Positions 47,461 to 54,740 of a stretch of 64,000 nt of DNA are shown in pieces. The first letter of the stretch is position 1, and each line of letters opens with the position of its first letter. The translations under genes and the position numbers were made by a program. This DNA is from Prevotella sp. (GTDB lineage Bacteria > Bacteroidota > Bacteroidia > Bacteroidales > Bacteroidaceae): the NCBI GenBank assembly GCA_017623155.1, contig JAGAPR010000098.1:6601-70600 (forward strand), in the 5' to 3' direction. The notes under the pieces were generated by a model. That model had not been told where the DNA came from and did not search any database. It worked only from the letters and a program-made list of their open reading frames with translations.

Positions 47461-48810
47461 ATGGGACTTATTATCGCCGCGGGCAACACTAAGCCCGTTT
47501 TCCCCTACGATTATTACTATGGCGTCAAGATTAACCTCGCCGTAGCAGACCCGACAGTAGAGCGAGTAGGGCGCCCCGAACTTCATACGAGCCTGCCAAT
47601 CCAGAGCCGCATGCGCCGCTGTATTCTTAAAGATAACGGCGACGTAAACTATTACCTGCACCCGACCGACAGCACCAAGAAGGACACCGGAGCCGCAGCC
47701 AAGCTAGACGGCACCGATGGCATGTATATGGTAGAGCTTCCGGATCACTACGCAAAATTTGAGTTTGATGGCAACAACTACAGCTCGCTAATTAGCGAGT
47801 ATCCGCTGCCCGGCTTCCACAAGGTACGAAAGTGCTACCGTAGCGCCGTCGAGGCCACCATCGACCGAACCGTAGCAGCCACCCCGAAGCTGGCCGCAGT
47901 CTGCAACACTACGGCCAGCTTCAGAGGCGGCAATAACAACGCCGCCTGGGACGGTACCTATAGGAGCCTTCTCGGCCTTCCGGCTACCGTCACGTCGTTA
48001 ACCAACTTCCGAGCCTACGCCCGCAACCGAGGCGCCGCAGGGCTTAACGGCGCCGGCTGGAACTGCGACCTCTACGAAGCCCAGCGAACCACCTACTGGC
48101 TCTTTGTCATCGAATACGCCACCCGCAACTGCCAGGCCGAATTTAACCCCCAGCCGGACGCAAACGGCTACAAGCAGGGAGGCCTCAGCGCCGGCGTCAC
48201 TACGCTCGCTGCGGCTAAGTGGAACACCCTAAACGGCTACTATCCCTTTATCCCCTGCGGCACAACCAACAGCCTGGGCAACGCTACCGGCGTCGTCGAG
48301 TTTACCATGCCCGACGAATACGACCCCGGCGTTACTACCGTCGTCAAGGTACCCAGCTACCGCGGCATAGAAAACCCCTTCGGCCACATTTGGAGCTGGA
48401 CGGACGGCTGCCTCTGCCTAATTCAGAGCAACGAGGCCGGCGGCCGCTCTATCTTCTACACCTGCGACGACCCGGCGCTCTTTGGAAGCGCCGCCGCAGA
48501 CCTGGCCAACTACCAGGAGCGAGGCGACCTCCCCAGGGTAGAAGGCTACGTTAAGACGATGATGGTAGGAGAATACGGCGAGAACATGCCGACCGCCGTA
48601 GGAGCCGGCGCGAGCGCTAATGCCCACTTCTGCGACTACTTCTATACCAACATACCAGCCACCGGCGAAGCTCTTAGGGGCGTGCTCTTTGGCGGGTCTG
48701 CGAATCACGGCACGGGTGCCGGCCTCGCGTCTGCGGCTTCGGATCGCGCCCCCTCGCTTACGACTGCGTACTTCGGCTCCCGGCTTTGCTTTATCCCCGA
48801 AGCAGCGTAA
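47461..48810 (+). CDS. DGR target: tail fibre/adhesin with C-terminal CLec (FGE-like) domain
   Basis: GIENPFGHIWSWTDG; C-terminal FGG...GSRLCF encoded by the VR. Confidence 0.88.
   Translation: MGLIIAAGNTKPVFPYDYYYGVKINLAVADPTVERVGRPELHTSLPIQSRMRRCILKDNGDVNYYLHPTDSTKKDTGAAAKLDGTDGMYMVELPDHYAKFEFDGNNYSSLISEYPLPGFHKVRKCYRSAVEATIDRTVAATPKLAAVCNTTASFRGGNNNAAWDGTYRSLLGLPATVTSLTNFRAYARNRGAAGLNGAGWNCDLYEAQRTTYWLFVIEYATRNCQAEFNPQPDANGYKQGGLSAGVTTLAAAKWNTLNGYYPFIPCGTTNSLGNATGVVEFTMPDEYDPGVTTVVKVPSYRGIENPFGHIWSWTDGCLCLIQSNEAGGRSIFYTCDDPALFGSAAADLANYQERGDLPRVEGYVKTMMVGEYGENMPTAVGAGASANAHFCDYFYTNIPATGEALRGVLFGGSANHGTGAGLASAASDRAPSLTTAYFGSRLCFIPEAA
48677..48790 (+). repeat. DGR variable repeat (VR)
   Basis: 114-nt ungapped match to TR; 21 mismatches, all opposite TR adenines. 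Confidence 0.96.
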
Positions 48811-48831
48811 ACCGCGCCGCCACGATTAACG

Positions 48832-48863
48832 CCTCGGGCGCCCCCGATTTAAGGCGCCCGAGG
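48832..48863. promoter_or_regulatory. Hairpin/cruciform downstream of VR
   Basis: CCTCGGGCGCC-(10 nt)-GGCGCCCGAGG. Confidence 0.7.
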
Positions 48864-48898
48864 TCAATCCAAACCAAACCACCTCAATAATACCGAAG

Positions 48899-49234
48899 AT
48901 GAACAACAAACAAGACGACGGCTCGCTGGCCTTCCTCAACATAGCACCCGACGAGGCTAACAAGCACTTCAACTGCCCGGAGACGACCCAGCAACAGCTC
49001 ATTAACCGGAGCTTCTGGCTGTGCGACTACATAAAGGGACAGCGGACAAAATACGGCGAAGACCGCTACATCGTCCTGGTTAAATTCAACAAGGACGACA
49101 AGATGGCCGACGCCCGCAAATTCTTCACTAATTCAAGAGATATAAAATATGTGCTCGACCAGATAAAACAGCGGAACGCCTTCCCGCGACACGTAACGAT
49201 GCGCGCCAGCGGAACCCGCTACTATTTGGAGTAG
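48899..49234 (+). CDS. DGR accessory-position protein (not Avd-like)
   Basis: 111 aa between VR and TR; mixed beta/alpha pattern. Confidence 0.65.
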   Translation: MNNKQDDGSLAFLNIAPDEANKHFNCPETTQQQLINRSFWLCDYIKGQRTKYGEDRYIVLVKFNKDDKMADARKFFTNSRDIKYVLDQIKQRNAFPRHVTMRASGTRYYLE

Positions 49235-49260: not shown

Positions 49261-49374
49261 GGGGCGTGCTCTTTGGCGGGAATGCGAATAACGGCACGAA
49301 TGCCGGCCTCGCGAATGCGAATACGAATAACGCCCCCTCGAATACGAATGCGAACATCGGCTCCCGGAATTACT
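49261..49374 (+). repeat. DGR template repeat (TR)
   Basis: 29 adenines; 12 AAY codons in target frame. Confidence 0.96.
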
Positions 49375-49529: not shown

Positions 49530-50579
49530 GTGAAAAGACACGGCAACCTCTTCGACCAGGTTATTAGCTTAGATAACCTTCGAGCTGCGGACGAGACCGC
49601 CCGCAAAGGTAAGCTGCGCACCTACGGCGTCAAGGTACACGACAAACACCGGGAGGAACACATCCAGACGCTACACGAGCAATTAAAGGCAGGAACCTAC
49701 AAGCCCTCGCCCTATACGACCGTTATAATACACGAGCCGAAGGAGCGCGTAATATTTCGCCTTCCGTACTATCCCGACCGCATAGTACACCACGCTATTA
49801 TGAACGTCGTAGCCCCAATCTGGCGGGGACTTTTCGACCGCGATACCTACTGCGGACTCCCCGGCCGAGGGATCCAGGCAGCCGCCGACCGCGTTAAATA
49901 CTTCCTTCGGAACCAGCCGGAAGACTGCCGCTATTGCCTTAAAATTGACATACGCAAATTTTATCCCAGCATCGACCACGACGTATTAAAGAAGCTGGTA
50001 CGATGGAAGATTAAAGACCGGCGCGTAATTGCCTTAATAGACGACCTTATAGACAGCGCCGACGGCATACCCATCGGCAACCACCCCTCTATCTTCTTCG
50101 CCCTTCTTTACTTCGCCAGGTTTATAATGTGGCTTCGCCAGGACTGGGCGAAGGAGCACGGCGTTAAACTGATTATGATAGACTACGCCGACGACTTAGT
50201 ATTTTTTGCGTCAGATAAGAAGATTTTACGCCGGCTTCTGGCCGACATGGAGGACTATCTGGCCAGAGAGCTAAAGCTGGAGATAAAAGCCAATAAGCAA
50301 ATTTTTCCAGTAGCCAGGACGCACCGCGATAAACACGGCCGCGGCGTCGACTTCCTCGGCTACGTATTCTACCTGGAGGGAACACGGCTCCGCAAAGGTA
50401 TAAAAAAGAACTTCGCCAGGGCTATAGGCAACATGCGCAGAGCCAAGAAGCCCATCAGCGAAGCCGACTTTTTACAGCGCTGCGCCTCCTGGTGGGGCTG
50501 GTGCAAACATAGTGATAGTAAACATTTAATCGAGAAACTAAACAAAACCTCACCGTATGAAATCAAATTCAAACGATAG
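49530..50579 (+). CDS. DGR reverse transcriptase
   Basis: GTG start; KER, DRIVHH, KIDIRKFYPSI, GIPIGN, YADD, DFLGY. Confidence 0.95.
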   Translation: MKRHGNLFDQVISLDNLRAADETARKGKLRTYGVKVHDKHREEHIQTLHEQLKAGTYKPSPYTTVIIHEPKERVIFRLPYYPDRIVHHAIMNVVAPIWRGLFDRDTYCGLPGRGIQAAADRVKYFLRNQPEDCRYCLKIDIRKFYPSIDHDVLKKLVRWKIKDRRVIALIDDLIDSADGIPIGNHPSIFFALLYFARFIMWLRQDWAKEHGVKLIMIDYADDLVFFASDKKILRRLLADMEDYLARELKLEIKANKQIFPVARTHRDKHGRGVDFLGYVFYLEGTRLRKGIKKNFARAIGNMRRAKKPISEADFLQRCASWWGWCKHSDSKHLIEKLNKTSPYEIKFKR

Positions 50580-51552: not shown

Positions 51553-52131
51553 ATGGCTAAAATAGACATCTTAGCCCCCTTTATACTTAGCTTCGAGGGG
51601 GGATATGTAAACGACCCCAGAGACCCAGGCGGCGCCACGAACCGAGGCGTAACAATCGCCACCTGGCGCCAAGTAGGCTATGACAAGGACGGCGACGGAG
51701 ACATCGACGTAGCCGACCTCAAGCTAATAACGCCGGCCGACGCCGTTAACCGCGTCATGAAACCCCACTACTGGGACAGATGGCAGGCCGACCGGATTAA
51801 AAGCCAAAGCGTAGCTAATATCGTCGTCGACTGGGTATGGGCTTCGGGCAAGCACGGAATAACCGGCGTGCAGAAACTTCTCGGCGTCAAGGTAGACGGC
51901 ATCGTAGGCGAAAAGACCTTAGCCGCCCTCAACGCCCAGGATCCCCGCGCGCTTTTCGACCATATCCACCGCGCCCGCGCCAGGTTTATAGACCAGGTTA
52001 TAGCCGGCCGCCCGACTTCGGCATGTTACCGCGCCGGCTGGCTTCGCCGCCTGGACTATATCCGCTTCGGCGCTTTAGTCCATAACGACACCCCGCCCAA
52101 AGTCGTACCCTTCGCCGACCTTCAGCCATGA
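51553..52131 (+). CDS. Endolysin, glycoside hydrolase family 108
   Basis: [20 protein letters not shown]; VDGIVGEKT; GWLRR. Confidence 0.92.
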
Positions 52132-52794: not shown

Positions 52795-52807
52795 GCGGAG
52801 AGAGAGG
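52795..52807. repeat. att core, tRNA-proximal copy
   Basis: GCGGAGAGAGAGG. Confidence 0.85.
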
Positions 52808-52880
52808 GATTCGAACCCCCGGAGGTGTGACCCTCAACGGTTTTCAAGACCGCCGCAATCGACCACTCTGCCATCTCTCC
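52796..52880 (-). tRNA. tRNA-Ser(TGA)
   Basis: GGAGAGA..TCTCTCC-G acceptor, anticodon loop CTTGAAA, long variable arm, GGTTCGAATCC. Confidence 0.96.
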
Positions 52881-53171: not shown

Positions 53172-54740
53172 ATGACACGTGAATATGATTTTCTGGTAAT
53201 CGGGTCGGGCATCGCCGGCATGAGTTTTGCCTTAAAGGTAGCCCGCTACGGGCGGGTGGCACTTGTGTGCAAGACCAATCTTGAGGAGGCCAATACTGCA
53301 TTGGCCCAAGGAGGAGTTGCCTCGGTGACCAATCTTGAGGTTGATAACTTTGATAAACACATACACGACACAATGGTGGCCGGTGACTGGCTGAGTGATC
53401 CCAAGGCTGTCGAGGCGGTGGTCAAAGGAGCGCCTCAGGGTATCAGGGATCTTATATCGTGGGGTGTAAACTTTGACAAAAAAGAAGACGGCACCTTTGA
53501 CTTGCACCGAGAGGGTGGTCATAGTGACTTCCGTATCCTGCACCATGCCGACAATACCGGCTGGGAGATACAGCGAGGGCTGAGAGAGTCGGTCTTTGCC
53601 GATGAGAATATTGACGTGTACGAAAATCACTTTGCCATCGAGATTATCACCCAGCATCATCTGGGGCGTATAGTGACTCGTCGCACACCCGATATCACGT
53701 GTTATGGAGCATATGTACTGGACCAGGAGTCGGGACGTGTCGACAAATTTCTGTCTCGTGTCACGGTAATGGCTACCGGTGGCGTGGGTGCAGTCTATCA
53801 GACTACCACCAATCCCTTGGTGGCTACCGGTGACGGTATAGCCATGGTATACCGTGCCAAGGGAACGGTCAAGGACATGGAGTTTATCCAATTTCACCCA
53901 ACGGCTCTGTATCATCCCGGCGACCGTCCCTCGTTCTTGATTACCGAGGCTATGAGAGGCTATGGAGCTGTATTGAGAAACCTCAAGGGCGAGGAATTCA
54001 TGCACAAGTATGACCCACGACTGTCCCTTGCACCACGTGACATCGTGGCCCGAGCCATCGACTCGGAGATGAAGCAGCATGGCGATGATCATGTATATCT
54101 CGACGTCACACATAAGGACCCCGAGGAGACGCGCCAACATTTCCCCAACATATATCAGAAGTGCCTGTCATTGGGTATCGACATCACTAAAGATTATATC
54201 CCGGTTGCCCCGGCGGCCCACTATCTGTGTGGCGGTATCGCTGTCGATACCAACGGTTGCTCGTCCATCAACCGTCTTTATGCTCTGGGTGAATGTTCGT
54301 GTACCGGATTGCACGGTGGTAACCGTCTGGCCAGCAATTCGCTCATCGAGGCTGTGGTATATGCCTCGGCTGCTGCGCGTCATGCTATAGACACCTTTAA
54401 GAACTATGACTTGCGTGGCGATGTTCCCGACTGGAACGATGAGGGCACTTCCCATCCCGAGGAGATGGTGCTTATCACCCAGTCGATGAAGGAAGTAAAC
54501 CAGATAATGGCCACATATGTTGGTATTGTAAGGTCCAACCTGAGGCTTGACCGCGCGTGGAATCGCCTTGACATCCTGTATGAAGAGACCGAAAGGCTAT
54601 TCAAGTGTTCCAAGGCTTCGCGCCAGATATGTGAGCTGAGAAATGTCATCAACGTCGGTTACCTGATTATGCGTCAGGCCAAGGAGCGTAAGGAGTCCCG
54701 CGGTCTTCACTATACGCTTGACTATCCACCGGTCAAGTAA
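53172..54740 (+). CDS. nadB: L-aspartate oxidase
   Basis: GSGIAG, AQGG, REGGHS, QFHPT, LAPRDIVAR, HGGNRLASNSL, ESRGLHY. Confidence 0.96.
   Translation: MTREYDFLVIGSGIAGMSFALKVARYGRVALVCKTNLEEANTALAQGGVASVTNLEVDNFDKHIHDTMVAGDWLSDPKAVEAVVKGAPQGIRDLISWGVNFDKKEDGTFDLHREGGHSDFRILHHADNTGWEIQRGLRESVFADENIDVYENHFAIEIITQHHLGRIVTRRTPDITCYGAYVLDQESGRVDKFLSRVTVMATGGVGAVYQTTTNPLVATGDGIAMVYRAKGTVKDMEFIQFHPTALYHPGDRPSFLITEAMRGYGAVLRNLKGEEFMHKYDPRLSLAPRDIVARAIDSEMKQHGDDHVYLDVTHKDPEETRQHFPNIYQKCLSLGIDITKDYIPVAPAAHYLCGGIAVDTNGCSSINRLYALGECSCTGLHGGNRLASNSLIEAVVYASAAARHAIDTFKNYDLRGDVPDWNDEGTSHPEEMVLITQSMKEVNQIMATYVGIVRSNLRLDRAWNRLDILYEETERLFKCSKASRQICELRNVINVGYLIMRQAKERKESRGLHYTLDYPPVK

Follow-up and report, generated by a model that had tools for sequence, protein, structure and literature searches.

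A clade of DGR reverse transcriptases with SI in place of SQ is probably functional in phages of gut Bacteroidales

[quoted passage not shown] 2012, PMC3521204). The window, meaning the whole 64,000-nucleotide stretch of Prevotella sp. DNA analysed here, encodes an RT that departs from this signature and reads IGNHPSI, in which the I-G and the Ser are kept and the Gln is replaced by Ile. The motif region as a whole is GIPIGNHPSIFFALLYFARFI...IDYADD, compared with GLPIGNYLSQ.LANL...FD...RYADD in canonical kin of ~60% identity. The stretch that had been flagged, from motif 4 to motif 5, translates as GIPIGNHPSIFFALLYFARFIMWLRQDWAKEHGVKLIMIDYADD, a letter-exact match to the RT text quoted in the original prediction. 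Can an RT so altered still direct mutagenesis to adenines, or was the variable repeat (VR) of this element written by some other enzyme?

The altered residues lie in a protein that is otherwise readily recognized. The ORF starts with GTG, matches PF00078 (E 1.3e-14, Pfam) and phrog_1423 (E 9e-109), and has as its nearest solved relative the Bordetella phage bRT (PDB 8ub7, E 4.6e-37). The RT fold, the motif 3 Asp and the YxDD box are all present: KIDI (D140) and YADD (residues 219-222; nt 50184-50195) are unaltered, D140 and D221 are invariant, and Y219 and D222 are nearly so. Adenine misincorporation by bRT is promoted by R74 and I181 (Handa et al. 2020, PMC7826257). Their equivalents in an alignment to bRT, R73 and I182, are invariant in the relatives that share the SI motif, hereafter the SI clade, and R73 is also found in 145 of the best 150 representatives of 10,616 homologues. 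Assignment to other RT classes fails by a wide margin. The group II intron RT/maturase model TIGR04416 scores 106 bits against a cut-off of 300 (NCBIfam), and retron and defence RTs (Drt2, Drt3a, retron St85) score 34-41 bits against NCBIfam cut-offs of 200-390. Furthermore, the protein ends past the thumb at 349 aa, unlike the genome's true group II intron RT (L003), which has 600 aa.

Within the flagged stretch, H185 and P186 are changed along with the four residues listed in the table. The replacement of SQ by SI, AN by AL, Asp by Ile and Arg by Asp falls in columns that are otherwise near-invariant in an alignment of 120 homologues (the best 120 of 4,889 found among 5.8 billion proteins). 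Judged from this alignment, the substitutions singled out in the original prediction can be taken as real departures from near-invariant columns, with chance ruled out.

Features of the DGR and its surroundings (window positions unless a locus or contig is named)
Feature	Position	Strand	Basis or remark
DGR target, 449-aa phage tail protein	47461-48810	+	phrog_5302 'tail protein', E 1.7e-121
Variable repeat (VR)	48677-48790	+	114-nt ungapped match to TR
GC-rich hairpin, 11-bp stem	48832-48863	+	downstream of VR and target stop codon
111-aa accessory ORF in Avd slot	48899-49234	+	phrog_19665, E 9e-29
Template repeat (TR)	49261-49374	+	29 adenines, 12 AAY codons in target frame
DGR reverse transcriptase, 349 aa, SI clade	49530-50579	+	ORF; PF00078; phrog_1423; bRT match
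Codon R73, counterpart of bRT R74	49746-49748	+	retained; alignment to bRT
Flagged stretch, RT motif 4 to motif 5	50064-50195	+	codons G179-D222
I182	50073-50075	+	retained; within flagged stretch
I188 (Q in relatives)	50091-50093	+	changed residue
L192 (N in relatives)	50103-50105	+	changed residue
I199 (D in relatives)	50124-50126	+	changed residue
D218 (R in relatives)	50181-50183	+	changed residue
tRNA-Ser (anticodon TGA)	52795-52880	-	directly past phage lysis genes
Second DGR of the genome (L002, genome G000)	contig C53:40039-43950		RT at L002:1471-2646
TR of second DGR	~L002:1245-1376		core mismatches at TR adenines
VR of second DGR	~L002:978-1109		core mismatches at TR adenines

The RT gene belongs, with the parts around it, to a complete phage DGR. 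The order is a tail-protein target with its VR, a hairpin, a non-Avd accessory gene, the template repeat (TR) and the RT. The VR sits at the 3' end of the target gene, so that the variable region is the last ~40 C-terminal residues of the tail protein. Of the 114 aligned nt, TR and VR disagree at 21, and every one of these is an adenine in the TR (8 A>C, 7 A>T and 6 A>G). The same arrangement, an adjacent TR/VR pair with A-only mismatches and a VR inside the target ORF, is present in 13 further clade members. A DNA fold of 48780-48900 has a free energy of -25.4 kcal/mol (z -4.69), and 0 of 200 shuffled sequences were equally stable; the hairpin within it is presumably the counterpart of the BPP-1 hairpin/cruciform that aids homing. 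TR position 49314 is A (codon AAT) in the window and T (TAT) in four other runs and most clade relatives, a TR polymorphism that gives the window's template one extra variable adenine.

The accessory ORF occupies the slot of Avd, a four-helix bundle protein of the PF05635 family, and no Avd signature was detected in it by Pfam or NCBIfam. It has a weak, sub-threshold match to a Treponema clustered lipoprotein. Members of its family (63-98% identity) lie between VR and TR in the SI clade, in a clade with SP at the signature position and in the nearest SQ clade. In SQ relatives farther away (L046-L083), VR and TR are separated by just ~100 nt, and the fetched flanks of these loci gave no match to the accessory protein.

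Two further observations concern the phage that carries the element. Its lysis genes, a GH108/PG_binding_3 endolysin at 51553-52131 and a 196-aa membrane-anchored protein, are followed by the tRNA-Ser gene, and host nadB begins at 53172, beyond the tRNA; the prophage probably has its attachment site at this tRNA gene, which would also mark its right end. In the target gene, the part at 48300-48660 (+) has ~30 differences from the window that are common to four runs from four studies. These lie upstream of the VR, for example at 48330-48540, though the downstream RT is >99% identical. Similar patches of difference in the body of the target gene are seen in two SI loci, L107 and L108. The tail-protein gene body has the look of a mosaic or a recombinant, and this would be separate from DGR activity.

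How widely the altered motif is shared bears directly on whether it reflects decay. The window's RT and its 16 closest relatives (P0001-P0016, 64-93% identity), whose 90% clusters together hold ~270 member sequences, read IGN(H/Q)(P/T)SI(F/Y)(F/L)A(L/I)L...F(I/L/F)...(D/V/C/I)Y(A/G)DD. Among the best 120 of 4,889 homologues, relatives of 62% identity or less read IGNYLSQ..AN..FD..RYADD, two partial sequences aside. P0069 and P0081, also in the range up to 62%, keep SQ and AN and have FL/LL..DY in place of the Asp/Arg pair; the P0069/P0081/L034 group is placed inside the canonical clade. In all, at least 24 distinct SI sequences (64-93% identical) share the remodelled motif 4. A maximum likelihood tree of 95 RTs (IQ-TREE) recovers the 24 SI rows as a single clade with SH-aLRT 99. 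This clade is nested within DGR RTs of the SQ type, which themselves come with A-only TR/VR pairs, and the window's enzyme is thereby placed inside the DGR RTs.

Sixteen positions separate SI sequences from their SQ relatives. Four of these are in motif 4 (Y185H, L186P, Q188I and N192L), and S108C, C109G and R159W are among the others. S187, I188, A191 and L193 are invariant in the SI clade, and L192 is nearly so. Pairwise comparison of eight genes by the Nei-Gojobori method gives dN/dS of 0.08-0.21 within the clade. Purifying selection has thus long maintained the variant motif, because dN/dS stays low while dS ranges from 0.10 to saturation. A pseudogene, or decay of the RT, was considered and rejected, given the intact ORF and these ratios. 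The two checks that the original prediction had proposed, a search for a clade sharing the changes and an estimate of dN/dS, thus gave a monophyletic, conserved SI clade under purifying selection; the changes are not private to one copy. One SI-clade viral contig (L013:4001-5365) has an RT frame of 455 aa, whereas P0015 and P0016, its nearest relatives, have 341 aa; the longer frame could reflect an extension at the C-terminus, a fusion or a lost stop codon.

Background variation among more distant RTs was gauged from a HMMER search of 1.84 billion representatives, which returned 10,616 homologues; of the best 150 (50% identity clusters), 138 could be scored. No representative in this set is >59% identical to the query, and the set reflects background variation rather than the size of the SI clade. 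Forms other than SQ occur in 16 of the 138 representatives (SP, SA, SG, SS, ST, SN, GS and SR), and the published forms are SP, SH, NQ, PA, AQ and VQ (PMC3521204). SI is absent both from that published list and from the 138 representatives (drawn from the best 150 of 10,616). AN retains its Asn in 135 of the 138. A distant DGR-type RT (P0174) reads IGNYLSQFFALLFL..FD..RYCDD, with SQ and the Asp/Arg pair intact; its own Asn-to-Leu change of AN appears from its sequence to have arisen independently.

The Asp that follows motif 4 and the Arg that precedes YxDD behave as a unit. Both are present in 123 of the 138 representatives, neither in 15, and one alone in 0. In place of the Asp stands mostly M, I, V, C or F (N and G once each), and the Arg gives way to E, N, C, S, A, V, W or I. 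On the tree, each of the two columns changes 8 times, and independent contrasts on supported branches point in the same direction in 6 of 6 cases (p 0.031). This both-or-neither behaviour is clean covariation and predicts a structural contact. The sequence data thus support a coupled change, in keeping with the earlier suggestion that joint loss of Asp and Arg is compensatory rather than decay. On the tree, loss of SQ and loss of the pair are not linked, and the latter recurs in ~11% of related RTs. The worry that these variants might already be common among DGR RTs was accordingly borne out in part: non-SQ forms (~10%) had been published and loss of the Asp/Arg pair is found in ~11% of related RTs. 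SI combined with AL appears neither in the published list nor in the 138 representatives.

Structural modelling, which the original prediction had also called for, yields a bRT-like fold. The AlphaFold2 model, built from 68 homologues, has a pLDDT of 95.9, and its best Foldseek match is the active-state bRT (8ub7_A; TM 0.86/0.92, rmsd 2.5 A). Motif 4 is modelled as a helix (185-210) and the YADD hairpin as strands 215-219 and 222-227. Residues 188, 192 and 199 are in one modelled helix, and residue 218 is in the strand running into YADD. By periodicity (i, i+4, i+11) the three helix residues would share one face. In the SI clade, one face of the motif 4 helix would therefore have turned from polar to hydrophobic through Q188I, N192L and D199I/L/F, accompanied by Y185H and L186P at the start of the helix, and the Arg just before YADD would have gone together with its usual Asp partner.

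Evidence on activity comes from the repeats of SI elements across the clade. Loci of the SI clade were taken from viral contigs, species genomes and assemblies, including the MAGs Bacteroidales bacterium H3 and W2P45.044; L009, L011, L111 and L112, which have too little upstream DNA, fall outside the TR/VR scoring. A TR/VR pair is present in 14 of 14 distinct SI-clade loci with sufficient flanking DNA. Across these 14 pairs, 207 of 401 TR adenines are changed, compared with 5 of 1171 other positions. The TRs are nearly alike across loci, whereas each VR differs from all others: between loci, 55% of shared TR-A columns differ in the VR as against 0.55% of shared non-A columns. Moreover, lineage-specific non-A bases of a TR are mirrored in the element's own VR in 88 of 88 cases. 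The mirrored bases and the VR differences at TR-A columns together indicate that transfer of sequence from TR to VR went on throughout the diversification of the SI clade.

The clearest single case comes from a pair of near-identical elements. L107 and L108, from two samples, have identical RT proteins (with five synonymous differences) and identical TRs, and their VRs differ at 14 sites, 14 of 14 at TR adenines; with 29 adenines per 114 TR positions, the chance of such an outcome is ~5e-9. The window's stretch is present in 18 runs, which come from 7 studies and include gut samples of pig and rat. This comparison was made on assembled contigs, and interpretation was confined to stretches with contig cover. 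Four runs, each from a different study, match the window at >99% identity over the RT region and depart from it in the VR; the VR differences listed (48704, 48730, 48731, 48742 and 48769) are at TR-A sites in 5 of 5 cases. The assembly of run X11 contains two alternative 136-nt unitigs that exactly span the VR (48667-48802), and run X7 has contig breaks at 48696 and 48770. Both patterns, which are properties of contigs rather than reads, are expected if VR variants coexist within a sample.

These footprints also bear on the proposal that the SI-type RT is dead and that the VR was written by another enzyme, either an SQ-type ancestor that preceded the motif change or an RT acting in trans. Such a scenario could draw on the four to six otherwise near-invariant residues altered near the active site, and on the company the element keeps: the window's genome (2.74 Mb, 84% complete) contains two further RTs, a second DGR RT (L002) on another contig and the group II intron RT (L003), and the part missing from the assembly may conceivably encode another. 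The second DGR makes a poor donor, however. It has its own A-only TR/VR pair and a distinct target with the C-terminus ...AAHGSRLLFIP, and no similarity to the window's TR was found in its locus. Its 391-aa RT, which reads LPIGNYSSPWFCNLYLTPLD...VRYADD (also given as LPIGNYSSPWFCN...LD...RYADD), is itself a non-SQ enzyme, with SP for SQ and the Asp/Arg pair kept. An ancestral writer is at odds with VRs that are still changing inside the SI clade under an identical RT and TR, with the complete mirroring of lineage-specific TR bases and with VR heterogeneity within a single run (in assembled contigs). Nor would dN/dS as low as that of the SI genes be expected for a dead gene across saturated synonymous divergence. 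The element is phage-borne and occurs in gut samples of pig, rat and others from 7 studies, and a trans-acting helper would need to travel with it. A dead RT is thus scarcely credible, and a foreign or ancestral writer of the VR is very unlikely because transfer from TR to VR is ongoing, the element spreads with a phage and the TR of the second DGR is unrelated; this part of the original prediction found no support.

The reading that best accounts for these sequences is, with high probability, that the SI element is functional and carries out adenine-specific mutagenic homing with an RT that lacks SQ. This agrees with the other proposal of the original prediction, a divergent RT subfamily producing A-specific mutagenesis without SQ: the subfamily is monophyletic and under purifying selection, and A-only TR/VR pairs occur in every testable member. 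The host would be a temperate phage of gut Bacteroidales, and the RT a lineage-specific functional variant of the DGR enzyme. The element would work like its Bordetella phage prototype: reverse transcription of TR RNA would misincorporate nucleotides at random opposite adenines, and the mutagenised cDNA would replace the VR in the tail-protein gene, a mechanism suggested by homology and by the TR/VR pattern.

Does the remodelled motif change how the enzyme mutagenizes, if not whether it does? Within AAY codons, SI elements have the first adenine changed in 69% of cases and the second in 44%; the nearest SQ clade gives 67% and 45% (p 0.67 and 0.84). The extent of adenine mutagenesis recorded in VRs is indistinguishable from that of the SQ-type sisters; since VRs are seen after selection, equal extent in VRs is not proof of equal enzyme error rates. 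The spectrum is less uniform. Over whole repeats, 14 SI pairs and 67 SQ pairs give A>G at 22% vs 36% and A>C at 37% vs 26% (chi-square p 2.5e-4), counts that include constant differences between TR and VR at the 3' end. Fewer A>G and more A>C changes are likewise seen in the SI clade at AAY first positions (p 0.006). The trend is absent at second positions (p 0.17), where it is partly reversed.

These spectra raise an alternative in which the enzyme is active but altered, the hydrophobic face of motif 4 shifting the misinserted nucleotide, the processivity or the dNTP affinity, with a different amino-acid repertoire in the tail protein as the outcome. There is precedent in bRT, where Q187P leaves the frequency of adenine misincorporation unaltered and shifts the nucleotide bias (PMC7826257). 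However, the failure of AAY second positions to follow the trend and the constant 3'-end differences in the whole-repeat counts both weaken the comparison, selection for receptor binding filters VRs and varies among phage lineages, and the fraction of adenines changed is equal in the two clades. Altered function is accordingly a reading of low probability, well above that of a dead RT. The SI enzyme may not fully equal SQ enzymes, and the spectrum difference is a hint only. It is similarly doubtful that conversion of the Q-N-D polar stripe and its Arg partner to hydrophobic residues left the misincorporation rate intact and shifted the choice of wrong nucleotide; if so, the helix face of motif 4 would be indicated as the determinant of the DGR mutational spectrum.

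For the functional reading favored here, the consequence is that the SQ dipeptide would be a lineage signature and not a requirement for adenine mutagenesis, because R73 and I182 are kept and the extent of VR mutagenesis equals that of the SQ-type sisters. The SI clade thereby offers strong comparative evidence for natural adenine-specific mutagenic homing by an enzyme that lacks the Gln, the near-invariant Asn of motif 4 and the Asp/Arg pair all at once. SQ is widely used in genome surveys, and DGR finders that demand it will miss the SI clade. DGR RTs are also under adaptation as programmable hypermutators, for example in DGRec, and the SI clade supplies natural variants with which to probe what sets the misincorporation spectrum. 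What is new is a sequence variant of a well-known system; there is no new mechanism, and the known DGR mechanism is unchanged by it. Elements without SQ still have adenine exchanges, and it has been noted that SQ "may not be absolutely necessary" (PMC3521204). The novelty implied by the original prediction was overrated, as both non-SQ RTs (PMC3521204) and dispensability of the Gln (PMC7826257) had already been published. No description of the SI/AL variant or of Asp/Arg covariation in DGR RTs was found in the part of the literature covered, which leaves novelty unproven.

Among known systems, the prototype for comparison is Bordetella phage BPP-1. Its bRT (PDB 8ub7-8ubf) has the same fold as the window's RT at ~31-33% identity, and the equivalents of R74 and I181 are retained in the SI enzyme. 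The elements resemble each other in having a phage tail-protein target with a 3' VR, a TR upstream of the RT and A-only mismatches. They differ in motif 4 and its surroundings, where bRT has IGSLTSQLFAN...VD...RYMDD and the SI RT has IGNHPSIFFAL...FI...DYADD, and in the accessory protein, which is not Avd by sequence in the window. Published non-SQ RTs and bRT Q187P are similar to the SI clade in that adenine exchanges or misincorporation persist in them without SQ, but in the SI clade the change of Gln is joined with N>L and loss of the Asp/Arg pair.

The closest comparisons are with other elements of Bacteroidales. Canonical SQ-type prophage RTs (for example P0017-P0068, L012-L045 and L086-L090) are 57-62% identical to the window's RT. 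Their elements share with it a 113-114-nt AAY-rich TR scaffold, the family of the tail-protein target, the accessory family (~69% identity) and an equal fraction of adenines changed, whereas the RTs keep YLSQ, AN, FD and RY and are set apart by the 16 separating positions. The sister of the SI clade is a Muribaculaceae/Barnesiella clade (L091-L093 and P0129; SH-aLRT 97). Loci L091-L093 and L097 of this group come from Bacteroidales, Muribaculaceae, Barnesiella sp. WM24 and Paramuribaculum intestinale. Like the SI clade, the sister clade is without SQ and the Asp/Arg pair, has the same accessory family and shows A-only TR/VR differences (20/0 in L092 and 16/0 in L093). Its motif, G(I/V)MLGSP(I/L)SP..(A/S)N..LC..(D/N)YADD, differs from that of the SI clade in having SP, the group II intron/retroviral form, in keeping the Asn of AN/SN and in having L rather than I before the Gly.
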